Assembly: GCA_024639185.1 (NCBI GenBank)
Contig: JAHEIW010000001.1
Coordinates: 24,153-88,152, forward strand
DNA: 64,000 bases
Origin: Deltaproteobacteria bacterium
GTDB lineage: Bacteria; Desulfobacterota; Desulfobacteria; Desulfobacterales; JAHEIW01
Reading direction: 5' to 3'
The notes beneath the pieces were generated by a model. That model saw only the letters and a program-made list of their open reading frames with translations. It had not been told where the DNA came from and ran no database searches. The translations under genes were made by a program, and so were the position numbers. Positions 11,808 to 51,473 of this stretch are shown in pieces. Numbering within the stretch: position 1 is the first letter of the stretch; each line of letters starts with the position of its first letter.

Positions 11808-12881
11808 ATGAATTTAAGGTACATCGTTCCGCTGATTGCCGTTACCCTTCTTTTTTTGGTCTCCTATCTGGGCGCCCAGGTGTCAGCAATGCAATATGTG
11901 CTGGGTGTGGTTGTTCCCTATGTGGCCATTCTCACATTTGTGCTGGGATTTGCTTATCGCGTGATCAACTGGTCGCGATCGCCGGTGCCCTTCAGTATTC
12001 CCACAACGGGCGGTCAGCAAAAATCCCTGCCCTGGGTTCGGCATTCCAAATTTGACAGCCCGGTAAAGGGGTGGCAGATCGTTGTGCGGATGGCACTGGA
12101 AATACTGACGTTTCGCTCGCTGTTCAGAAACACGCGCATGAAGCTGAACCAGGGCGGCCGGTTGTCCTACCAGCTGGAAATTTTTCTGTGGGTCGGCGCG
12201 CTGGCCTTTCATTATGCCTTTCTGGTGGTGCTCATCCGCCATCTGCGCTTTTTCACCGATCCGGTACCGTTTTTTGTGCAACTGGTTGAAAACATCGACG
12301 GCTTTTTTCGGGTTGAAATCATCTATCCGGCATTTAAATTCGGCGTTCCCGGGGTTTATCTTTCGAGCTTTGTGCTGCTGGCAGCGGTCAGCTACCTGTT
12401 TTTCAGACGGCTTTTTGTGCGCCAGGTCAAATACATTTCGATTGCATCGGACTATTTTCCGCTGTTTCTGATTTTCGGAATCGCTCTGAGTGGTATTCTG
12501 ATGCGCTATTTCACCAAGACGGATGTGACCGCCGCCAAGGAGCTGACCCTGGGGCTGGTCACCTTCCGGCCCACCATTCCGGAAGGGATCGGCGCTATCT
12601 TCTTTGTGCACGTCTTTTTGGTCAGTATCCTGATTGCCTATTTTCCATTCAGCAAATTGATGCACCTGGGCGGCGTGTTCCTGAGCCCGACGCGCAACAT
12701 GCCTACCGACACCCGTGCCCGCCGGCACGTGAATCCCTGGAATTACCCGGTGCCGGTGCATACCTACGATGAGTATGAAGACGAATTCAGGGAGAAAATG
12801 GTCGAAGTCGGATTGCCGGTTGAAAAAATGCCGGAACCCGCAGCGGCGGAAGAGCCGGAGCAAGCAGAGGAAAAGGAGTAA
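11808..12881 (+). CDS. dsrM: DsrM, membrane cytochrome b subunit (NarI family)
   Basis: PVPFSIPTTGGQQKSLPW, YFPFSKLMH, heme His residues; start at ATG 11808 (GAGG RBS). Confidence 0.95.
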   Translation: MNLRYIVPLIAVTLLFLVSYLGAQVSAMQYVLGVVVPYVAILTFVLGFAYRVINWSRSPVPFSIPTTGGQQKSLPWVRHSKFDSPVKGWQIVVRMALEILTFRSLFRNTRMKLNQGGRLSYQLEIFLWVGALAFHYAFLVVLIRHLRFFTDPVPFFVQLVENIDGFFRVEIIYPAFKFGVPGVYLSSFVLLAAVSYLFFRRLFVRQVKYISIASDYFPLFLIFGIALSGILMRYFTKTDVTAAKELTLGLVTFRPTIPEGIGAIFFVHVFLVSILIAYFPFSKLMHLGGVFLSPTRNMPTDTRARRHVNPWNYPVPVHTYDEYEDEFREKMVEVGLPVEKMPEPAAAEEPEQAEEKE

Positions 12882-31062: not shown

Positions 31063-31082
31063 ATATGAATATTTGTTCATAT
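31063..31082. promoter_or_regulatory. SmtB/ArsR-type operator overlapping the promoter (TTGACA at 31039)
   Basis: ATATGAA-tatttg-TTCATAT palindrome. Confidence 0.75.
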
Positions 31083-31097
31083 ATTCAAGGAATAGGT

Positions 31098-31472
31098 ATG
31101 AGTATTGTAAAAGTTAAATGTTTAGACGGGGACGACTGCCAGGTCAGGGTGATTCACCTGGACCGCGTCGAGCAGGCGCGCAGAGACACCGTCTCAGAAA
31201 AAGAAATTGAACGCCTGTCATCGATTTATAAAATCCTGGGAGATCCCAGCCGCCTGAAGATTGTCATGGCGCTTAAAAACGTTGAAATGTGTGTTTGTGA
31301 CCTGGCTGCGTTTCTGGGGCTTACCGAGTCGGCGGTCTCTCATCAATTGCGGCGTTTCCGCGATCTGGCCCTGGTGAAAAGCCGCCGTGACGGTCAGGTG
31401 ATCTATTATTCGCTGGATGATGAGCATGTGGCCGAGCTGTTGGATGTAGGGCTTGAACACGTTTCGGAATGA
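31098..31472 (+). CDS. ArsR/SmtB (CadC/ZiaR-like) metal-sensing repressor
   Basis: LGDPSRLKI, EMCVCDLA, SAVSHQLR, DDEHV...EH alpha5 metal site. Confidence 0.92.
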   Translation: MSIVKVKCLDGDDCQVRVIHLDRVEQARRDTVSEKEIERLSSIYKILGDPSRLKIVMALKNVEMCVCDLAAFLGLTESAVSHQLRRFRDLALVKSRRDGQVIYYSLDDEHVAELLDVGLEHVSE

Positions 31473-31619: not shown

Positions 31620-32801
31620 TTGAATTTTATTTTCGAAATTTTGCTGGCGACGTGGGATTTACTGGTGGACGCGTCGGTTTACATTTTGTTCGGATTGCTG
31701 GTGGCCGGGCTGCTGAGGGTCTTTTTAAACCCCAGCTCGATCGCCACTCACCTGGGGCAGGGTCGTTTTAAATCCGTGCTGAAAGCAGCTTTTTTTGGCA
31801 TTCCGATTCCGTTGTGATCGTGCGGCGTGCTGCCCGCAGCCGTGTCGCTGCGCAAACAGGGCGCCAACAATGGCGCTACGACCGCATTTTTGATTTCAAC
31901 CCCCGAATCCGGGGTGGATTCCATTTCGATCACCTATGCCCTGTTGGATCCCATCATGACCGTCGCGCGTCCGGTGGTGGCTTTTATCACTGCGGCGGTT
32001 GCCGGCATTACCGAAAACCTTCTTGGGCCCAACAATGGGTCAACCCGCATCACACCGGATCTGACCTGCCCGGTGGATGGCTGCTGCGACGGGGAAAACT
32101 GTTCATCTGAAGAGCATCGCCAGCACCATACGTTCTGGGAGAAGCTTAGCGCCGGTATGCGCTTTGCCGTCGATGATCTCTGGGAAGATCTGGCTGGCTG
32201 GTTTATGATCGGAATGTTACTGGCCGGGTTGATTACAGTGCTGATTCCGCCCGATATGTTCGGTAAATATCTGGGCTCCGGCCTTCCGGCTATGCTGATC
32301 ATGCTGGCGGTCGGCATTCCGTTGTATATCTGTGCAACGGCCTCCACCCCCATTGCCGCAGCCCTGATTCTTAAAGGCGTCAGCCCGGGCGCCGCTCTGG
32401 TCTTTCTTTTAGCCGGACCGGCCACCAATATCGCCTCTTTAACGGTTTTGACCGGGGTGCTGGGCAAACGGGCTACCGCTATTTACCTGACTTCCATTGC
32501 AGTATGTGCGGTTGGTTTTGGTTTAATCGTTGACCTGGTGTATGCATCGCTGGGAATTTCAGCCCAGGCAGTGGTGGGTCAGGCCTCGGAAATTGTACCG
32601 CATTGGGCGGGGGTGATCGGTGCGTTGATGATTCTGGCGGTGTCGGTTAAACCCATCTGGAAGGCGCTGCGGGCACGCTTCAAACCTGCCGCAAAGGAGG
32701 AAGAAACCATATCTGGGACCGAAAAGACGCTGGCCGAGCCGCTGCCGGTGGTGTCCGATTGCTGCCCAACCTGTGATTGTTCATCTGATTCGCAACGCTA
32801 G
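31620..32801 (+). CDS. Predicted selenoprotein: ArsP/DUF318 (SO_0444-like) metal permease, Sec at TGA 31815-31817
   Basis: ORFs 31620-31817 and 31827-32801 are in frame; read-through gives GIPIPL-U-SCGVLP, matching the family PLCSCGV motif; second repeat PLYICATASTP. Confidence 0.85.
31836..31851 (+). other. Candidate bacterial SECIS for the permease UGA
   Basis: GCAGC-CGTGTC-GCTGC hairpin; loop starts 23 nt after the UGA with G at loop position 2. Confidence 0.55.
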
Positions 32802-41107: not shown

Positions 41108-41190
41108 TTTTCTGAAAAAGCCAAACCCATTGAAAGGTGGGGACGGAAAACCACGGGTCCGTCGGAGGTGGATAGCCGGGTTGCCAGATT
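41108..41190 (+). ncRNA. Cyclic di-GMP-I (GEMM-I) riboswitch
   Basis: GCCAAACCCATT-GAAA-GGTGGGGACGGAAAACCACGGGTCC...GGATAGCCGGGTTGCCAGA follows the GEMM-I layout (GNRA-capped P2, AAA junction, P3; P1 TCTG/CAGA). Confidence 0.88.
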
Positions 41191-43366: not shown

Positions 43367-44113
43367 TTATTTTAGCGCACGAATCAATACGCCCTCGGTG
43401 ATGGCTGAACTGTTAAATCCTGTTTTGGCGACCAGCTCTGGTCTTTTGAAGCCCGCCTTTTGAAGCATTGCCAGGAAATCCTTTCCCGGTATGGCGCCGC
43501 CCTCTCATTGCGCCCAACTCTTAATTATCTTATCTTTTTCCTTGGGCAACTCGCCGATTAGAATTTCGTCGGCAACCATCAGGCGGCCACCTGGTTTTAA
43601 AACGCGGTGGATCTCGCCAAGAGCCCTGGCTTTGTCGGGGACAAGATTTAAGGCCCCGTTTGAGGTGACAACGTTAAAGTTTTCGTTTGAAAAAGGTAAA
43701 TTTTCAACCGAACCTTCCTCTAAGATCACATTTTTTAAATCCGTCATTAAAAGATTTTTTTTAGCCTTGTTAAGCATCGCCGGTGTTAAATCGATCCCCG
43801 CTACTTTCCCCGAAGGACCGGTCATCATCGCAGAATAGAGCGTATCGACACCGGCTCCGCAGCCGACGTCGAGCACGGAATCGCTTTCATTGATGGGTCC
43901 CAATGTAAAAGGATTGCCCACACCGCAATATGAAGCGACAACTTCCGCAGGTAACGCCTGGAGAAGTTCCGGATCATATTGTAAAAGCGTTAGTCCCTCA
44001 TGGCCAGTGGGATACCGAAATAGGCCACCAGGATTTTTGGCGGCCTTTGAATATGTTTTCCGAACCCTCTTTTGAATCCATTTTTTATCTCGATTGGTAA
44101 ATTGAGTTTCCAT
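43367..44113 (-). CDS. Predicted selenoprotein: ArsM-like class I SAM methyltransferase, Sec at TGA 43505-43507
   Basis: YCGVGNP, LDVGCGAG; read-through gives SWAQ-U-EGGAIPGKDFLAMLQKAGF..., matching the ArsM-type W..C..GA...L..AGF segment; TAA at 43367. Confidence 0.85.
43471..43489 (-). other. Candidate SECIS for the methyltransferase UGA
   Basis: CCGGGAAA-GGA-TTTCCTGG 8-bp stem starting 15 nt after the UGA, G-first loop. Confidence 0.65.
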
Positions 44114-44233
44114 ATCCTAACCTTTCTTTATGCAAAAATTGGATGCGATCAAAAAATGAGAGTTGCATAATTTCGACCCGCCGGCCAGGTCATCAGGGAT
44201 CTTGGGCTTCCAACCGATTTCTACAGAGATGGT

Positions 44234-44497
44234 TTATTGGAGGCTTGCCTGGATAGCGGCTACCAGTTTTTTTTTGGAAATGTCGGTTCCTTCGACTACA
44301 ATTTCATCACCGACCATAACCGCAGGCGCCACCGGCAGATCGAGTTCAAAATATTCGTCGGTCATGTATTCGTCGTTTGGTTTTTCGATGGTTTCAATCT
44401 CGATATCGTATTTGGCACCCAACCTGGGCATCATTTTTTTGAAGTGCTTTCACGGCTTACCGTTGGGCAGGTTCATGAAAAATATGACCTTCAACAT
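44234..44497 (-). CDS. Predicted small thioredoxin-like selenoprotein (NxPxGxxU motif, TsoC-like), Sec at TGA 44450-44452
   Basis: GGAGG RBS, ATG 44497, MLKVIFFMNLPNGKP-U-KHFKKMMPRLG... in frame with ORF 44234-44434; APAVMVGDEIVVEG cis-Pro-type motif; 87 aa. Confidence 0.8.
44417..44429 (-). other. Candidate SECIS for the small selenoprotein
   Basis: GCCCA-GGT-TGGGT hairpin starting 20 nt after the UGA; CAGGT resembles the fdhF SECIS apex. Confidence 0.65.
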
Positions 44498-44583
44498 AAT
44501 GGCCTCCATTGGTGTTCGTTGTCAGTTGTCCGTTGAGCGTCGTTTCTAAAACCCCAGTTGCTCTGATACTGCGGCAATAGCCG

Positions 44584-46320
44584 TTACTTGCTTTTAATCG
44601 CTGCCATCCGCACCAAAAATTGATCCACCGGCAGATAATCTACTAGGCGCAATTCGCGCCGTTCTTTTCCCTGACGATCTAAGAACACAACCGTGGGAAC
44701 GCCTCTAACACGATATTGACGTAATAAGTCTTCATAGACCGGATTGCCCTTTCGGGTGAGGTCTACCTTTATCATGATAAAATCTTTTTTAGTCTGTTTG
44801 ACAATTTCAGGATGATGAAAGGTGATTTCATCCAGTTCGCGACAGGGCGCACACCAGTCGGCATAAAAATCAAGGATCACCGGCTTTTTTAATCTCTGGG
44901 CTTCCACCAATAACGATTCTGAATAGGGCTGCCAGGCCAAGCCGGGACCGCGCATCAACCAGGAGCCGATAAGGACAGTGGCGATGATCAGGCCCACGAT
45001 GGCCGCAGCGATCCTGAGCCAATCAAATCCGCGAAATTCGGCGCGGCTCCGATCTATCCAGCCAAGGTGTAATGCAGCCGCCAAAGCCACGGCGGATAAT
45101 AAAAACACTTTTACAGTACCGGGTAATAACGGCTGAATAAAATAAGCGGCCATGCCCACCAGAATCCAGCCCAAAAGTTTTTTGACCCACAGCATCCACT
45201 CACCGGAACGGGGAAGATTGCTCAGCTGTCCGGAAAACAGTGCCAGAAAAAACAGGGGCAGGCCCAGGCCCAGGCTCAGGGTAAAAAAGATTAAAAATCC
45301 GATCCATAGGTTTCCAAGCGTGGCGACCCAGGTCAGCAGCCCCAAGATGAATGGACCAATACACGCGGAAGCCACCACTCCCAAAGTTAGGCCCATGAAC
45401 AGGCTACCCATGTAACCGGTATACGTTTTTGACGCTGCCTGCGATAAAGCATAGGGAAGTCGTATTTCCCAAAGCCCAAAGAGACTGGTCGCAAAAAAAA
45501 TCAGGACGACCGCCACCAGAGCGAGCACTAAAGGATGCTGCAGCAGACTGCCAAACATCCCGCCGGTTAGAGCAGCAATAACGCCGAGCACAGAGTTGGT
45601 AATTGCCAGCCCTCCGATATAGCAGGCTCCATGGATGATGAGCTTTTGCTGGCTTTCAGCGCGCCCGCCACCGAAATAGGAAACCGTAATCGGAATTAAG
45701 GGGTAGATGCAGGGTGTCAGGTTCAGGGCGATTCCGCCGGCAAAAATTCCCAAAAACGTCCATATCATCGCCCAGCCATGTAAGGGTTTTGACTGTTGTG
45801 GGGCCAGTGAGGTTTCCGAAAGACCGGCTGGAGAGCTGTCAATCGGCAACCCCCGGGCATGCCATTCCGGATAGCCCATGGGTTCACGAAAAATATTTTG
45901 ATAACCAAGTTTTACGGCCACCCGGGCCGCCGAGTCGCTGCGGGCTCATGCCAGCCCTGCTCAGTAAAATACAATGAAACGATTTTGGTCTGAGCCCAGT
46001 AATTTTTTGAGGGCGCCTTTGTTGCGCCAGCGCGACAGCCAGGTCGGCTCCATTGGAAAATTCACCGCTTTTTGAATATGGCCGGTGCGGTATTCCCACT
46101 CCTGGCGTGTATCGACCAGCAGGATAGAATCCGATTTTATCTTATACTTGCTGGCTAAATCATCTGTGGTTATCAACTGATAGCCGCCTTGACGGGCTTC
46201 GGTCATCACATCCTGCCAGGTAGCTGTTTTGGGAGCGACCACCCGATTGGCTTGCCAGATGTAACCTGCGGTCAGCGCCACAGCTGCCAGCGCCAGCAAA
46301 GTTTTTTTTAAACTGCTCAT
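44584..46320 (-). CDS. Predicted double-selenocysteine rhodanese-DsbD(beta+gamma) fusion; Sec at 45961-45963 and 45946-45948
   Basis: ORFs 45961-46332 and 44584-45921 are in frame and joined by IVFY-U-AGLA-U-ARSDSAARVAVKLGY; then TM Cys motifs LTPCIYP and SACIGP, and thioredoxin WCAPC; start ATG 46320 or GTG 46332. Confidence 0.85.
45914..45930 (-). other. Candidate SECIS downstream of the tandem UGAs
   Basis: GCGGCC-CGGGT-GGCCGT hairpin; loop starts 21 nt after the second and 36 nt after the first UGA. Confidence 0.55.
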
Positions 46321-46404
46321 CGCCTTATTCACTGTTATCTTATTAGATAATCTGTTTAGCGGTTGAATTCACCCGTTGTGTTTCCTTCGCTAAACCAAAT
46401 GAAC

Positions 46405-47082
46405 TTAGACCTCTTCGTTTCCAATAATCGGAAACCCCAGAGCCCGAAAATCCTGAATGCCTTCCTCAAGTCGAATCGCCTTGAATCCACGAGCGCGAAG
46501 AATTTCCACAGCCATAACCGAAAGAACACAATACGGACCACGGCAATAGGCCACAATTTCCTGGTCGCGCGGTAAATCCGACAAATGCTGCTGCAGCTCT
46601 TTGAGCGGAACGGACAGGGCGCCGGCAATGTGCCCGGCGTTGAATTCCACAGACGGGCGAACATCCAGAACGGTCACCGCATCTTCGCGCACGAGTTTTA
46701 GAAGCTTTGTGCGGTCCACCGGCATCATACCTTCTCTGCCATCCAGGAAACGATTTTTGATTTGTTCCACTTCGGCCAGGCGGCTTTCGGCCAGCAGACG
46801 CATGGACCGAAAAAACTCGCAGACCTGCTGATCGGCAAGCCGATAAATGACATACAAGCCATCTTTGTCAGCCGCCACCAGCCGGGCAGCTCGCAGGACC
46901 TGCAAATGCTGGGAGGTATTGGCGATGGTCAAACCAGATTCGTTGGCCAGGGCCTCTACCGTGCGAGGTCCCTGGCAAAGGAGGTCCAGCAGCTCCAAGC
47001 GTCTGGGACTGGAAATCGCCTTGCCGACGCGCGCGAATTGCTCATATATCGCATCTTTAAATGCTCGGGTTGGATTTTTCAT
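46405..47082 (-). CDS. ArsR-family regulator fused to a rhodanese domain
   Basis: KAISSPRRLELLDLL, NTSQHLQVL HTH; LDVRP, GHIAGA, YCRGPYC; ATG 47082. Confidence 0.92.
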   Translation of the reverse strand: MKNPTRAFKDAIYEQFARVGKAISSPRRLELLDLLCQGPRTVEALANESGLTIANTSQHLQVLRAARLVAADKDGLYVIYRLADQQVCEFFRSMRLLAESRLAEVEQIKNRFLDGREGMMPVDRTKLLKLVREDAVTVLDVRPSVEFNAGHIAGALSVPLKELQQHLSDLPRDQEIVAYCRGPYCVLSVMAVEILRARGFKAIRLEEGIQDFRALGFPIIGNEEV

Positions 47083-47085
47083 TTT

Positions 47086-47129
47086 ATATCCTATAGTATT
47101 CAATTGATTAATTGAATACTATAGGATAT
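47086..47129. promoter_or_regulatory. 44-bp palindromic operator of the ArsR-rhodanese gene
   Basis: ATATCCTATAGTATTCAATT-gatt-AATTGAATACTATAGGATAT; minus-strand TTGACA at 47139-47144 with its -10 inside the palindrome. Confidence 0.8.
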
Positions 47130-47288
47130 CTGCTCTATTGTCAAGAGAAAGTTATCTTACAAAAAATGTGGAGTTCGAATGCAATTACGTCGGCTTAAGG
47201 CCCATAGGGACCACCGAACAGGTTAGTAAAAAATTTTGCAATAAACTGAAATTTAGGCAGAATTTAGATTTCGGACATCGGGTGGGTC

Positions 47289-47459
47289 TTAGCGAAAGGA
47301 TGCTGTTTTTAAAAGCTGTGCCATCGCATTCAAAAGTTCTTCTATCAGGTCATCGGCTGTGTGAAAATGTTTCTTATCAGCCCAGCTATCTTTTAATTGA
47401 TGCATCCAATACGTTGGATTTGGCGCCATACGATTCCAGTTCGATTGATTGATATCCAT
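47289..47459 (-). CDS. Possible 56-aa hypothetical protein
   Basis: MDINQSNWNRMAPNPTYWMHQ...LLKTASFR, co-directional within the cluster; no family recognised. Confidence 0.3.
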   Translation of the reverse strand: MDINQSNWNRMAPNPTYWMHQLKDSWADKKHFHTADDLIEELLNAMAQLLKTASFR

Positions 47460-47498
47460 TCGCCCCGTTCGCTCCGAATATGTCTCTTTGACCTGATC

Positions 47499-47708
47499 TT
47501 AAAGACGGTTGTTTTTTAAACTGTCCACCACCTGGCGGACGTCTGCCAAGCATCAACTGCCACTGGGATTTTTAGTGGCACACTCACAGGTCCCCATCTT
47601 CTTTGCCATGGCAATTTTTTCCATGATTGTTGACCGACCGTGTTTCACAAAATCGCGCTGGATATTTTCAACTGTGTAGCCAAAACAATAGCAAATTAAG
47701 TCACTCAT
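47499..47708 (-). CDS. Predicted selenoprotein: BFD-like [2Fe-2S] (CopZ-N-like) protein, Sec at TGA 47553-47555; not in ORF track
   Basis: MSDLICYCFGYT...GTCECATKNPSGS-U-CLADVRQVVDSLKNNRL; family motif CYCF...CxC..NPxGxCCL with the first C of CC read from TGA; 69 aa. Confidence 0.85.
47523..47540 (-). other. Candidate SECIS for the BFD-like protein
   Basis: GTCCGCC-AGGT-GGTGGAC 7-bp stem starting 12 nt after the UGA. Confidence 0.7.
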
Positions 47709-47740
47709 GAATGTTTTCAACTTAAATCGTATATGAACAG

Positions 47741-48214
47741 CTATTCATGCTTAATACGTCCAAAGCCGTTTCTGCGTTTGCCTTCGAATAATATAATCAG
47801 CAGACCGCAAAGAAAATAGAAAATGTCGCGTAGCACTGTCATTTTAGAAGAGCTGCTATTTCCGTTTTGATCGGCAGAAAAACATCCGCAATCAAATTCG
47901 TGGCCGCGAATAATATTGATTGTTAAAGCCGCCATGAAGGCCAGCAGCAAAATATTAATGGTGATGGCTGCCGAGCGCGGGTAGAATCCAAGGATGAGTG
48001 CAAGTCCGGCAACAAGCTCGAGAAACGGAATAATGATGGCGATCAGATTGATTAAAACATGCGGAAATAGGGCATAGCCATAAACAATTTTGGCAAAATC
48101 TGTCGGTGACAGGATTTTGTGGAAACTGGCGTAGATGAAGGTGAGCCCCAGAATCCAGCGGGCCGCCAGTTCAATCCAGCTATTATTGATGATGGATAGC
48201 TTAAAATTTTCCAA
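47741..48214 (-). CDS. MauE/DoxX family redox membrane protein
   Basis: RWILGLTFIYASFHKI, IPFLELVAG, FDCGCF; probable TTG start 48214 overlapping the upstream gene. Confidence 0.85.
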   Translation of the reverse strand: MENFKLSIINNSWIELAARWILGLTFIYASFHKILSPTDFAKIVYGYALFPHVLINLIAIIIPFLELVAGLALILGFYPRSAAITINILLLAFMAALTINIIRGHEFDCGCFSADQNGNSSSSKMTVLRDIFYFLCGLLIILFEGKRRNGFGRIKHE

Positions 48215-48701
48215 TGGGATAGCCCTCTGCTTCCCAGCCCGGAAAGCCGTCAATAAAGATGCGCACTTCACTGAACCCAACGTCTGAGAGCAACCGTGCG
48301 AGATGATGGCTGTCTTCGCAGGTTCGGCCGGAACAATAGGTAACAATGGGTTGATCCGGCGGGTACTGATTTATGAACGATTCTATTTTTTCATCAAATT
48401 GGCCGATCGGCAATGATATGGCTCCCGGGATGTGGCCGCTTTCATAGTCCTCTGTTGAACGTGCGTCTACAAAAAGTGTGTCATCGTCATAAAATATTTT
48501 GGCGGCATCGCTTACCCGGTCGATTTCAGCAATGCGATACCCATCCTCACCCGGGGCATTGGGGCGAATGACCCCTTTAGCCGTGTCCCACTGACCTACC
48601 AGGGCAATGCCTCTGGGCGACAGATGGTTCACCACCAGCGCCAGCGCCACTGAAACACCCACCAGGATCATAATTTCCTTTATCGTTTTTCCGTAAATCA
48701 T
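48201..48701 (-). CDS. Membrane-anchored rhodanese domain protein
   Basis: N-terminal TM, VDAR, GHIPGA, TYCSGRTCEDS, GFPGW. Confidence 0.9.
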   Translation of the reverse strand: MIYGKTIKEIMILVGVSVALALVVNHLSPRGIALVGQWDTAKGVIRPNAPGEDGYRIAEIDRVSDAAKIFYDDDTLFVDARSTEDYESGHIPGAISLPIGQFDEKIESFINQYPPDQPIVTYCSGRTCEDSHHLARLLSDVGFSEVRIFIDGFPGWEAEGYPIGKF

Positions 48702-48882: not shown

Positions 48883-49746
48883 TCAATTCCGGATGAAGGT
48901 GCCGTTTTGAATTTCCTGTAATGTCTGTTCAATTTCCGCCTGCGTATTCATGACAAAGGGCCCATAGCGCGCGATGGGTTCGTTTATCGGCTTACCGGCC
49001 ATCAGCACAAATCGCACGCCCTGATCGCCGGCCCGTACCGATACCAAGTCCCCGTCGCCAAAGACAATCAAACGCGGTTGGCCAACTAAAGATTTCTGAG
49101 TGCTCCCGTTGGCGCCAAAATCGCCTTCACCTTCGAATACATAGGCGATGGCGGCGTTATCGTCGGCAACCGGTTGTGCATATGAGGCGTGTGCAGGAAC
49201 GGATACATCCAGATAGATGGGATCGGCGGCAATCTCTTTTACCGGGCCGTTGACACCATCGACCTGACCGGCGATCACCCGGATGATGACGCCATCATCC
49301 TGTTGAACCTCCGGTATCTGATCGGATGTAATATTCTGATAGCGCGGAGCCGTCTTTTTGAGTCTGGCCGGAAGGTTGACCCACAGTTGAAAGCCTTTCA
49401 TTTCACCCTCAATTTGCTGGGGCATTTCCTCGTGCAGAATTCCCCGGCCGGTTGTCATCCATTGGACATCGCCGTCAGTGATGCTGCCGGAATTGCCGAT
49501 GCTGTCTTTATGGTTGACGCGCCCACTGATCATATACGTGACGGTTTCAATTCCACGGTGCGGATGCATGGGAAATCCCTTCATATAATCATCAGGGTTG
49601 CTGGATCCAAAATGATCAAACAGCAAAAATGGGTCGACATGATCCAGTTCAGCGGTGGCAATGCTTCTGATCAGTCGTACGCCGGCACCTTCAAGCACCG
49701 GTCGAGGCTCGATAATACGCGCCACTTTTCTCACTTGAGGTGTCAT
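48883..49746 (-). CDS. Pirin family protein
   Basis: DPFLLFDH, HPHRGIETVTY, GILHEE, GPFVMN. Confidence 0.95.
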   Translation of the reverse strand: MTPQVRKVARIIEPRPVLEGAGVRLIRSIATAELDHVDPFLLFDHFGSSNPDDYMKGFPMHPHRGIETVTYMISGRVNHKDSIGNSGSITDGDVQWMTTGRGILHEEMPQQIEGEMKGFQLWVNLPARLKKTAPRYQNITSDQIPEVQQDDGVIIRVIAGQVDGVNGPVKEIAADPIYLDVSVPAHASYAQPVADDNAAIAYVFEGEGDFGANGSTQKSLVGQPRLIVFGDGDLVSVRAGDQGVRFVLMAGKPINEPIARYGPFVMNTQAEIEQTLQEIQNGTFIRN

Positions 49747-49784
49747 GCTTTTCTCCTTCAGATGTTTAACATTAAAATTTCTGA

Positions 49785-50396
49785 CTAAGCGCTCAATTTC
49801 GTCGCGATTTCGGCCACATGCTTACCCTGGAACCGGGCGCCCTCCAATTCGTTTTCACTGGGTGTGCGCGAGCCATCGCCACCGGCAATCGTCGAGGCGC
49901 CGTAAGGGGAACCTCCGGTAATCTCATCGACGCGCATCTGGCCCTGAAAGGCATATGGCAGACCCACCACCACAAACCCGTGATGCAGCAGGGTGACATG
50001 GAAGGTCAGAAGCGTCGATTCCTGTCCACCGTGCTGGGTGGCGCTGCAGGTAAAAACACTGCCGACTTTTCCCACCAGTGATCCGTTTGCCCATAGCTGT
50101 CCGGTGGCATCTAAAAATTGGCGCATTTGCCCGCACATATTGCCAAAGCGGGTCGGCGTGCCAAAGATAACCGCATCTGCTTTGGCCAGCTCATCGACAG
50201 TACATTCGGCAATGTGCGAAAATGTCTTTTGGGCATCGACCGCCCCCATTTTCTCCAGTACTGCCGGAGGCAGGGTCTCCGGCACACGCCGGATATCGAC
50301 TTCAGCGCCAGCCACTTGTTTTACGCCTTCGGCAACCGCCTCGGCCATTTTATGGACATGTCCGTATGTGGAATAAAAAACAACGAGTACTTTCAT
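49785..50396 (-). CDS. wrbA: NAD(P)H:quinone oxidoreductase WrbA
   Basis: YSTYGH, GTPTRFG, TQHGGQE, GGSPYGA. Confidence 0.95.
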
Positions 50397-50507
50397 GGTC
50401 AAATCCTCCTGTTGGGTTGTTATGAATTATCTATACGTAATCCTAATATTTTGCAGATCGAATTGCACCCTTGCGTATAAAGGCCAAACGATTCAGTCTG
50501 TTGAGAT

Positions 50508-51473
50508 TTAAGAGGCCTTGTCGGATTTGACAAGACAGGGGTCACTTTCGCATGCATTGACCTCAACGGTGACATGCACAATTTCATCGTAGTCTTTCAG
50601 CAAATTTTTGTAGTGATCGGGTGACTTGGGAAAGTGGGTAACGATGGACACAATCGCCGCGAGATGATGGGTGCCGACTCGCCACACATGCAAATCCGAC
50701 ACGCGGTTGTCCGCATCCGACTCGATTAAAGATTGGATTTCAGCGACGGCTTCCGGATTGACATCGCGGTCCAGCAGCACCTTGCCGGAATCCACCAGCA
50801 ACCCGTAAGACCAGCGTGAAATAATCAGGGCCCCGACGATTCCCATAATGGGGTCCATCCAGACCCAGCCGAACGCCTTGCCGGTAAACAAGGCAATGAT
50901 GGCCAGCAACGATGTAAGGGCATCTGCCAGCACATGAAAATAGGCCGCCCTCAGGTTGTGGTCACGAAATTGATTGTTGTGGTTATGGTCATGGGCTGAA
51001 TGTTCATGGTGATGATGGTGTTTTCCCTGCAGCAAAAAGGCGCTGATGACATTGACCACCAGACCTACGAATGCCACTAAAATGGCCTCGTTGAAACGGA
51101 TGGGCTGGGGAGAGGCCAGCCGCTGAACAGATTCAACACCGATCAGCAAAGCAATGACGGCCAACACCACCGCGCTCGAAAAACCGCCCAGGACGCCGAC
51201 TTTTCCGGTCCCAAAACTGTAATTGGGATTATCCGAATTTTTACGTGCAAAAGAGTACGCAAAAGCGGTGATGCCCAGCGCCACCGCGTGGGTTCCCATG
51301 TGCCATCCATCGGCCAGCAGCGCCATGGAGCCAAACACATATCCGGCGGCTATCTCGATGACCATCATCGACAGTGTCAGTATGATAACCCGGCGCGTAT
51401 TGCGTTCGCCACGACCATCATCAATGTTATAGCGGTGGCGGTGTTGCCATCTTTGCAGTGTATGAATATGCAT
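50508..51473 (-). CDS. dmeF: CDF family Co/Ni efflux transporter DmeF
   Basis: SMALLADGWHM, His-rich loop, DHNLRAAYFHVLADALTS. Confidence 0.9.
   Translation of the reverse strand: MHIHTLQRWQHRHRYNIDDGRGERNTRRVIILTLSMMVIEIAAGYVFGSMALLADGWHMGTHAVALGITAFAYSFARKNSDNPNYSFGTGKVGVLGGFSSAVVLAVIALLIGVESVQRLASPQPIRFNEAILVAFVGLVVNVISAFLLQGKHHHHHEHSAHDHNHNNQFRDHNLRAAYFHVLADALTSLLAIIALFTGKAFGWVWMDPIMGIVGALIISRWSYGLLVDSGKVLLDRDVNPEAVAEIQSLIESDADNRVSDLHVWRVGTHHLAAIVSIVTHFPKSPDHYKNLLKDYDEIVHVTVEVNACESDPCLVKSDKAS

Follow-up and report, generated by a model that had tools for sequence, protein, structure and literature searches.

A selenoprotein gene cluster with an ArsR-rhodanese regulator as a very probable variant of the Tso locus in a Desulfobacterales-type bacterium

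Introduction

Seven neighboring genes of a Desulfobacterales-type bacterium, four of them interrupted by in-frame TGA codons, raise the question of whether these codons specify selenocysteine (Sec, U) and what the encoded proteins might accomplish together. The cluster occupies positions 43367..48701 of a stretch of 64,000 nt (positions 24,153-88,152 of contig JAHEIW010000001.1, assembly GCA_024639185.1), hereafter the window, which derives from a genome of 5.09 Mb that is 92% complete. A first-pass annotation, made from the sequence alone, had listed seven genes on one strand in the order rhodanese, MauE/DoxX protein, (2Fe-2S) protein with one Sec, ArsR-rhodanese fusion, rhodanese-DsbD fusion with two Sec, small thioredoxin-like protein with one Sec, and methyltransferase with one Sec. 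Open reading frames (ORFs) and Pfam matches on the minus strand bear out this arrangement.

The same annotation knew of no described operon with this composition. A "three selenoprotein operon", Tso, has been named (Haft & Tolstoy 2025, mSystems 10:e0141724, as cited in the review PMC13188914); the available part of that review lists TsoA, TsoB and TsoC and states no function for them. NCBIfam models exist for each of these proteins (TsoA, NF045695, with the motif LULAxC; TsoB, NF045694; TsoC, NF045708) and for a regulator, TsoR (NF045707). Here, we present evidence that the cluster is almost certainly a variant Tso selenoprotein locus. Its core is an ArsR-rhodanese gene followed by tsoB and tsoC, with a gene for a Sec-containing methyltransferase appended, and a separate upstream unit consists of the rhodanese, MauE and (2Fe-2S) selenoprotein genes together with a dead gene for a Sec-containing redoxin. 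The cluster itself will not surprise a selenoprotein specialist. What it adds to knowledge of Tso is a candidate operator, a methyltransferase with glycine in place of a conserved cysteine, and a lead to a possibly uncatalogued family of Sec redoxins, none of which was found in the literature searched, the primary Tso paper, their likeliest source, excepted.

Results

Five in-frame TGA codons are predicted to encode selenocysteine

The source genome possesses a complete Sec machinery, comprising tRNA-Sec (selC) and selA, selB and selD genes that all score above cut-off; selD itself carries one in-frame TGA. Conservation was assessed in 43 Tso loci (46 were fetched, and three that matched DsbD only were excluded), the named relatives being mostly metagenome-assembled genomes of Desulfobacterales and Syntrophobacterales. 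Counts from this set and from the others used below overlap and include kin, and hence are neither additive nor independent. Across families, both tsoB positions read TGA in every one of the 43 loci; at its corresponding position the codon is also kept in 29 of 31 tsoC genes, in 5 of 5 (2Fe-2S) genes and in 3 of 3 methyltransferase genes. A search of 61 genomes, including the source genome, with the TsoB model gave 13 above the cut-off, each with two TGA codons. Four of the codons align with cysteines, as had been proposed (residue numbers count from the ATG starts): U120 and U125 of TsoB align with C123 and C128 of the all-Cys rhodanese of the cluster itself, U203 of the methyltransferase with an arsenic-binding cysteine of ArsM/AS3MT, and U52 of the (2Fe-2S) protein with a cysteine of 2HU9, weakly (E 0.5), as well as with the CopZ N-terminal models. 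The Sec of TsoC matches the second cysteine of a glutaredoxin CxxC motif in a weak alignment (E 1.3). Automated annotation truncates such genes, and 118 of the best 120 methyltransferase homologues stop at residue 202.

The first-pass annotation had also seen a hairpin resembling a Sec insertion sequence (SECIS) in each of the four genes. Under the consensus model given in the accessible part of the review PMC13188914, with its energy threshold of -7.5 kcal/mol, this holds for three of them, the methyltransferase, tsoB and (2Fe-2S) genes, and fails for tsoC, whose hairpin fits the model in position and loop and is too weak in energy (Table 1). A hairpin alone is weak, supporting evidence, because the model is satisfied by 18 of 120 control TGA stops as well. 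The one hairpin of tsoB is placed to serve both UGAs. Among 37 sequences, 99.5% of its alignment cells are paired, and 12 double changes all fall at one synonymous pair, which reads G-C, A-U or C-G; such covariation, confined to one pair in related sequences, is suggestive and not proof.

That the TGAs are instead true stops or assembly errors in a decaying cluster is vanishingly improbable. Decay does occur in this region among close relatives, as seen in a redoxin gene remnant in the window and methyltransferase remnants in loci L037, L041 and L051. Moreover, the tsoC Sec codon reads CGA or TAA, one each, in L056 and L070, which suggests loss of function there, and the passing control stops lend this alternative some further weight. 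Against it stand the complete Sec machinery, the invariance of both tsoB codons across families and the compensatory change within the tsoB hairpin. Assembly error is countered by separately assembled contigs from two public runs (one study, possibly the source data), which span all five TGA sites with 0-2 differences per contig; this comparison used assembled contigs, not raw reads. Judged by sequence conservation, the true-stop and error readings are already refuted for these TGAs, and the five codons in the four cluster genes are real Sec codons.

TsoB and TsoC place the cluster among Tso loci

TsoB, with its two Sec residues, and TsoC both score above their curated cut-offs (Table 1), and tsoC starts 86 nt after tsoB. 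With these two matches and the Tso operon named in the review, as far as its available part goes, the view that no operon of this kind had been described falls. TsoA was not detected: NF045695 had no match in the source genome (92% complete), with two positive-control genomes scoring above its cut-off; tblastn with TsoA queries gave no TsoA match in that genome either, and the locus has no room for tsoA. Among the 43 loci, a TsoA motif precedes tsoB in seven, with one more detected by tblastn, and the ArsR-rhodanese gene is present in 16. The canonical locus L163 reads TsoR-TsoA-TsoB-TsoC-GcvH-related-Trx-like-methyltransferase, and the position held by TsoR-TsoA in canonical loci is occupied in the window by the ArsR-rhodanese regulator. 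Of 201 genomes of the order, 38 have a TsoC match above cut-off and 40 any TsoC match, and in 29 of the 30 TsoC loci fetched, tsoB lies within the flank.

TsoB has the features of a DsbD-type protein, namely a pair of cysteines in the beta domain, a CxxC motif in the gamma domain and eight transmembrane (TM) segments; its N-terminal anchor scored below the TM threshold in the window protein. Lys and Arg occur in loops 1, 3, 5 and 7 and not in loops 2, 4 and 6, and because of this positive-inside pattern the rhodanese and thioredoxin domains are predicted to lie on the same, outer side. U120, U125, C204, C320, C490 and C493 are invariant in all 29 aligned sequences (the window protein and those of 28 of the 43 loci). 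These six redox residues, the eight TM segments and the charge bias support the earlier proposal of a route from the cytoplasm to a periplasmic Sec pair, and, by analogy with DsbD, electrons would flow outward along it.

A conserved palindrome precedes the ArsR-rhodanese regulator

The regulator is an ArsR/SmtB-rhodanese fusion whose four cysteines are invariant in 16 of 16 loci that carry it. It was rejected as a member of either TsoR or BigR, as it falls below both cut-offs; against TsoR it scores 45 with a cut-off of 115, compared with 156 for the canonical locus L163. Ahead of the gene lies a palindrome with the core TATTCAAT-n6-ATTGAATA, which, allowing up to two mismatches, precedes 15 of 16 ArsR-rhodanese genes and is found in 0 of the 27 other loci. 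The copy in the window is the sole perfect one in the source genome. Its arms extend over 20 bp, compared with a core of 8-10 bp in relatives, and are identical in contigs of the two public runs. Promoter and terminator scans were both at chance level overall (for promoters, 12 sites with 10.8 expected), with the promoter of the regulator as the top score, and a TTGACA sequence recurs 5' of the operators in most relatives. An Rfam search gave no match within the cluster.

We infer from the position of this putative operator that the regulator represses its own promoter, and the earlier suggestion of an inducible unit thereby gains support as one that is probably autoregulated. Because the conserved palindrome and a promoter precede the regulator gene, the cluster probably comprises two transcription units rather than one, with regulator-tsoB-tsoC-methyltransferase transcribed apart from rhodanese-MauE-(2Fe-2S) and read-through from upstream into the former possible. 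The first-pass list, right in its genes and their order, overlooked both a probable division of the cluster and an eighth gene, broken, that separates the (2Fe-2S) gene from the regulator gene.

A possible role in sulfane sulfur sensing and reduction

The likeliest job of the locus, to which we give somewhat less than even credence, is the sensing of sulfane sulfur, or its selenium analogue, and its reduction in the periplasm. The regulator, bound to the palindrome, would repress its own promoter and would release the DNA once sulfane sulfur (a polysulfide, a persulfide or a selenium analogue) modifies the CxGxxC loop of its rhodanese domain. A cytoplasmic donor, thioredoxin or TsoC, would reduce the membrane cysteine pair of TsoB as in DsbD, and electrons would pass from there through the periplasmic CxxC domain to the U-x4-U loop, which might then cleave periplasmic S-S or S-Se species. 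The methyltransferase, where present, would probably methylate a chalcogen or soft ion bound at U203, rather than arsenite in the manner of ArsM.

This proposal is favored because a single loop type, C/U-x-G-x-x-C/U, is common to the sensor, TsoB and the upstream rhodanese, and because of the company kept by distant relatives of the regulator. Of 300 other genomes of the phylum, 11 carry such a regulator, beside tsoB, DsrE-type genes (three, of one family), OsmC-type genes (two confirmed by scan) and MFS transporter genes; among those neighbors that were scanned, which were some of the total, there was no metal pump. Persulfide sensors are known in the ArsR family, SqrR and BigR being the examples given in the part of PMC9774590 consulted. 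The curated TsoB and TsoC matches, the frequent pairing of tsoC with tsoB, the invariant redox residues and predicted topology of TsoB and the association of the palindrome with ArsR-rhodanese genes also count in favor of the proposal. Several observations weigh against the proposal: the regulator falls short of the BigR cut-off, no characterized ArsR-rhodanese fusion was found in the literature searched, and both the methyltransferase and the genes of the upstream unit are more suggestive of metals. A one-component sensor paired with a candidate operator makes the inducing signal approachable without expressing any selenoprotein.

TsoB might also be a Sec-accelerated DsbD, its rhodanese substituting for the alpha domain, that serves general envelope thiol repair after exposure to O2 or peroxide. 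We regard this as rather improbable. The DsbD architecture of TsoB would fit such a function, as would the OsmC genes beside distant regulators and the wrbA and pirin genes that close relatives carry immediately upstream and in the same orientation. However, wrbA and pirin are absent from the Tso loci of other families, the source genome has a separate DsbD-like gene (contig C417), and the rhodanese loop together with a rhodanese-fused sensor suggests small-molecule chemistry.

The upstream unit has lost a selenoprotein gene

The mauE gene likely starts at a TTG codon, given its overlap with the rhodanese stop and the ORFs of relatives. The (2Fe-2S) selenoprotein falls below the cut-offs of NF047645 (55/100) and NF045877 (33/190). 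In locus L038, at 11877-12392 on the minus strand, its counterpart is a fusion with an HMA domain at the N terminus, whose UxxU motif brings the Sec residues to three, and scores below the NF041115 and NF047645 cut-offs. Farther upstream of the cluster, pirin, wrbA and a DmeF-type CDF exporter gene occupy 48883-51473 on the minus strand, an order kept in most close relatives. What we take to be a MarR-like gene precedes wrbA in several relatives and is absent from the window.

The (2Fe-2S) gene and the regulator gene are separated by an in-frame deletion remnant of a gene for a TlpA/redoxin-like selenoprotein. It is 76% identical over 50 residues to an intact gene in L048, and the deletion, which removed the (C/U)PxU motif, was confirmed by DNA comparison; a public-run contig crosses the junction without differences. 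The parent gene is whole in L036, L037, L047, L048 and L049 and frameshifted in L038. Its motif reads UPRU in three loci, UPGU in one and CPLU in two, with the same small hairpin (-5.8 to -6.3) after each. Among the 120 homologues listed, the motif positions read C..W in 44, W..W in three, C..C in one and C..R in one, two pattern hits are spurious, and 69 are unmatched (the listed ones begin after the motif); tryptophan here is probably the reading given to TGA by gene callers. No NCBIfam model scored better than E 0.2 for any of 32 family members, Pfam gave no significant match for the three members scanned, and a profile search of the PDB returned noise only. A Cys homologue has a TM-score of ~0.6 to redoxin/TlpA models. 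The wider family counts 1,935 representatives; where the listed hits extend over the motif, most of them have CxxC. Among 40 scanned representatives of the Cys homologues, mostly chosen for length, an HMA domain occurs in 16 and MerT in five. On sequence comparison, this family of Sec redoxins with (C/U)PxU may be missing from curated catalogues; it could already be catalogued, because several selenoprotein rows in the table of the review (PMC13188914, as far as available) are defined by broad Pfam families alone.

The composition of the cluster varies among relatives. All seven genes are whole in one of 18 relative loci (L038), several contigs ending early. The (2Fe-2S) gene is present in five of nine close relatives spanning mauE to tsoB, and among five relatives spanning tsoC to DUF2867, the methyltransferase gene is whole in two, a remnant in one and absent from two; both genes are optional in close relatives. 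A seven-gene operon acting as one fixed pathway, as the first-pass annotation had supposed, was rejected on these counts and on the presence of the operator that splits it. In L036, L037, L049 and L051, the neighbor of the regulator-tsoB unit is a whole or remnant FmdE-family gene that includes a treble-clef zinc finger.

The methyltransferase differs from canonical arsenite methyltransferases at a metalloid-binding cysteine

The last gene encodes a stand-alone ArsM-like S-adenosylmethionine (SAM) methyltransferase. In alignments with solved ArsM/AS3MT structures, U203 corresponds to the C-terminal arsenic-binding cysteine and C63 to Cys72, and the SNC motif of ArsM reads SNG, with Gly153 at the position of Cys174. 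The Cys174/Cys224 pair is therefore Gly153/Sec203 in the window protein, which scores 186 against the ArsM model NF008823, with a cut-off of 263. According to the consulted part of PMC6138428, the metalloid site consists of Cys174 and Cys224, and As(III) methylation requires all four cysteines. Glycine replaces the Cys174-equivalent in 120 of the 120 best-listed homologues; L106, a family member that passes NF041537, also has SNG. The review PMC13188914, in its available part, lists ArsM/AhpD and ArsM/DUF2284 selenoproteins.

The source genome carries a separate, canonical ArsR-ArsM locus on contig C187, with SNC and the second cysteine; there, at 45164-47500 on the plus strand, ArsR-ArsM is followed by a 170-aa ORF and a 111-aa ORF with CxxC. 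Canonical arsenite methylation by the window enzyme was rejected in view of the glycine and of this separate locus, and with it the notion that arsenite is the obvious substrate for methylation. As a working description drawn from its sequence, we regard the protein as a chalcogen-assisted SAM methyltransferase and not as a canonical ArsM. Members of this subfamily are often labeled arsenite methyltransferases and truncated at the UGA, with half of the arsenic site gone, a point of consequence when arsenic methylation is surveyed in sediments.

Ten matches to the methyltransferase occur in nine of 151 genomes of the order, each with one TGA. Seven of these nine genomes also carry Tso genes, compared with 40 of 201 genomes having any TsoC match, and in other families less than 2 kb separates the gene from tsoC or tsoA; in L164, an ArsR gene, tsoA and the methyltransferase gene are consecutive. 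Synteny thus upholds a link between the methyltransferase and Tso, and not a constant set of seven genes.

These proteins bring forward a different function, the handling of soft metals or metalloids (Hg, Cu, Sb or organoarsenic), which we consider unlikely, if a serious candidate. Sec pairs would bind the ion, TsoB would keep a periplasmic ligand reduced or strip the ion from it, CopZ-like and HMA proteins would act as chaperones, and the methyltransferase would methylate the ion. The resemblance of the (2Fe-2S) protein to the N-terminal domain of CopZ, its HMA fusion with UxxU in L038, the HMA and MerT domains among the scanned Cys homologues of the deleted redoxin, the recurrence of the methyltransferase near Tso genes and the DmeF-type exporter upstream are all consistent with this function, and many such selenoproteins are tied to heavy metals in the part of the review PMC13188914 that was available. 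On the other hand, the genes of metal type belong to the other transcription unit and are those most frequently lost, the methyltransferase lacks one of two arsenic-binding cysteines, the canonical ArsR-ArsM locus stands elsewhere in the genome, and the scanned neighbors of distant regulators are sulfur-relay and OsmC genes.

A broader and rather doubtful conjecture is that the Tso core of this lineage has acquired a wider set of Sec proteins that serve one thiophilic substrate, including the unmodeled redoxin family and a methyltransferase with a single selenolate. The redoxin, with its motif LLSP-x-(C/U)-P-x-U, would belong to this set, being intact in relatives, deleted here, and having Cys homologues fused to HMA and MerT. 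If the conjecture were true, the methyltransferase would have traded the arsenic clamp of ArsM for Sec chemistry, methylating, for example, sulfide, selenide or tellurium, or else a soft metal independently of HgcAB.

Table 1. Positions of the genes and sequence elements of the cluster within the window
Feature	Position	Strand	Description
Membrane-anchored all-Cys rhodanese	48201..48701	-	PF00581; loop CSGRTC; one N-terminal TM segment
MauE/DoxX membrane protein	47741..48214	-	PF07291; CGC motif
BFD-like/CopZ-N-terminal-like (2Fe-2S) selenoprotein	47499..47708	-	69 aa; GxUC
(2Fe-2S) protein U52 codon	47553-47555	-	TGA
(2Fe-2S) gene hairpin	47523-47540	-	-11.0 kcal/mol
In-frame deletion remnant of TlpA/redoxin-like selenoprotein	47289..47459	-	~7 N-terminal and ~50 C-terminal residues of 180 aa
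Sigma-70-like promoter	47116..47144	-	-35 box 47139-47144, -10 box 47116-47121; best-scoring site, 10/12
Operator-like palindrome	47086..47129	.	core TATTCAAT-n6-ATTGAATA; 20-bp perfect arms; overlaps -10 box
ArsR/SmtB-rhodanese fusion regulator	46405..47082	-	225 aa; loop CRGPYC; passes NF033788
TsoB	44584..46320	-	578 aa; NF045694, 993.3 with cut-off 805; N-terminal anchor, rhodanese U120-x4-U125, DsbD beta (C204, C320), thioredoxin gamma (C490, C493)
TsoB U120 codon	45961-63	-	TGA
TsoB U125 codon	45946-48	-	TGA
TsoB SECIS-like hairpin	45914..45930	-	-9.5 kcal/mol; loop 36 and 21 nt downstream of the UGAs
TsoC	44234..44497	-	87 aa; NF045708, 143.5 with cut-off 45; cytoplasmic, thioredoxin-like
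TsoC U16 codon	44450-44452	-	TGA; motif NLPNGKPU
TsoC weak hairpin	44416-44430	-	-5.6 kcal/mol; position and G-led loop recur in relatives
Stand-alone ArsM-like SAM methyltransferase	43367..44113	-	248 aa; N-terminal-domain match to NF041536/NF041537/NF047649
Methyltransferase U203 codon	43505-43507	-	TGA
Methyltransferase hairpin	43471-43489	-	-8.4 kcal/mol

Other features of the window and the genome

A sixth Sec codon in the window lies in an SO_0444-family Cu/Zn efflux gene at 31620-32801 on the plus strand (TGA 31815-31817, motif IPLUSC). The gene stands behind an ArsR/SmtB gene (31065-31472), and its part after the TGA passes NF033936; the family is listed as a selenoprotein in the accessible part of the review PMC13188914. 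Sec in the ArsR/SmtB gene was ruled out, the flagged TGA being the stop codon of that gene. A c-di-GMP-I-GGC riboswitch (RF03167, 69.4 bits with a threshold of 59) was found at 41111-41189 on the plus strand, before a ribbon-helix-helix/PilZ gene. A gene for tRNA-Pyl is located on contig C269 (6610-6683, minus strand), directly followed by ORFs that we presume, from their likeness, to be pylS, pylB, pylC, pylD and pylSn, and the source genome may encode both the 21st and the 22nd amino acids.

Discussion

The proteins of this cluster resemble known systems to different degrees. Like canonical ArsM/AS3MT enzymes (CmArsM 4FR0 and related structures; human 8XT7), the methyltransferase has the fold, the SAM motif, C63 at the Cys72 position and U203 at the Cys224 position, and it differs from them in the glycine at the Cys174 position. 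The N-terminal domains of the fusion selenoproteins NF041537 (/AhpD), NF041536 (/DUF2284) and NF047649 (/UXPK-star) match it end to end, with 320-364 bits and Sec in UxxG, whereas the window protein stands alone, lacks their C-terminal Sec domain and scores under all three cut-offs. The (2Fe-2S) protein shares NPxGxUC and an N-terminal CxC with the GxUC (2Fe-2S)-binding CopZ-family selenoprotein form 1, which is catalogued in Table 1 of the review (PMC13188914, as available), and with 2HU9. In contrast to the CopZ N-terminal domain of 2HU9, it represents only the C-terminal half of the domain, and in contrast to the CopZ-family selenoproteins it remains under the NF047645 and NF045877 cut-offs. 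TsoB shares with the alpha-beta-gamma DsbD of E. coli an eight-TM beta domain with two cysteines and a C-terminal CxxC thioredoxin domain, and it carries a rhodanese with two Sec residues where DsbD has its alpha domain.

The closest comparison is with the Tso operon itself. As in that operon, TsoB (UxxxxU) and TsoC (GxxU) are adjacent, in order and both over cut-off, an ArsR-family gene stands at the head, and further selenoprotein genes lie alongside, as described in the available part of the review. The locus departs from the operon in that TsoA was not found and TsoR is lacking, and their place is taken by an ArsR-rhodanese fusion with its own putative operator. No GcvH-related gene follows tsoC, and TsoC has NLP rather than NEP. 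Finally, the window adds an upstream rhodanese-MauE-(2Fe-2S) unit to the Tso genes.

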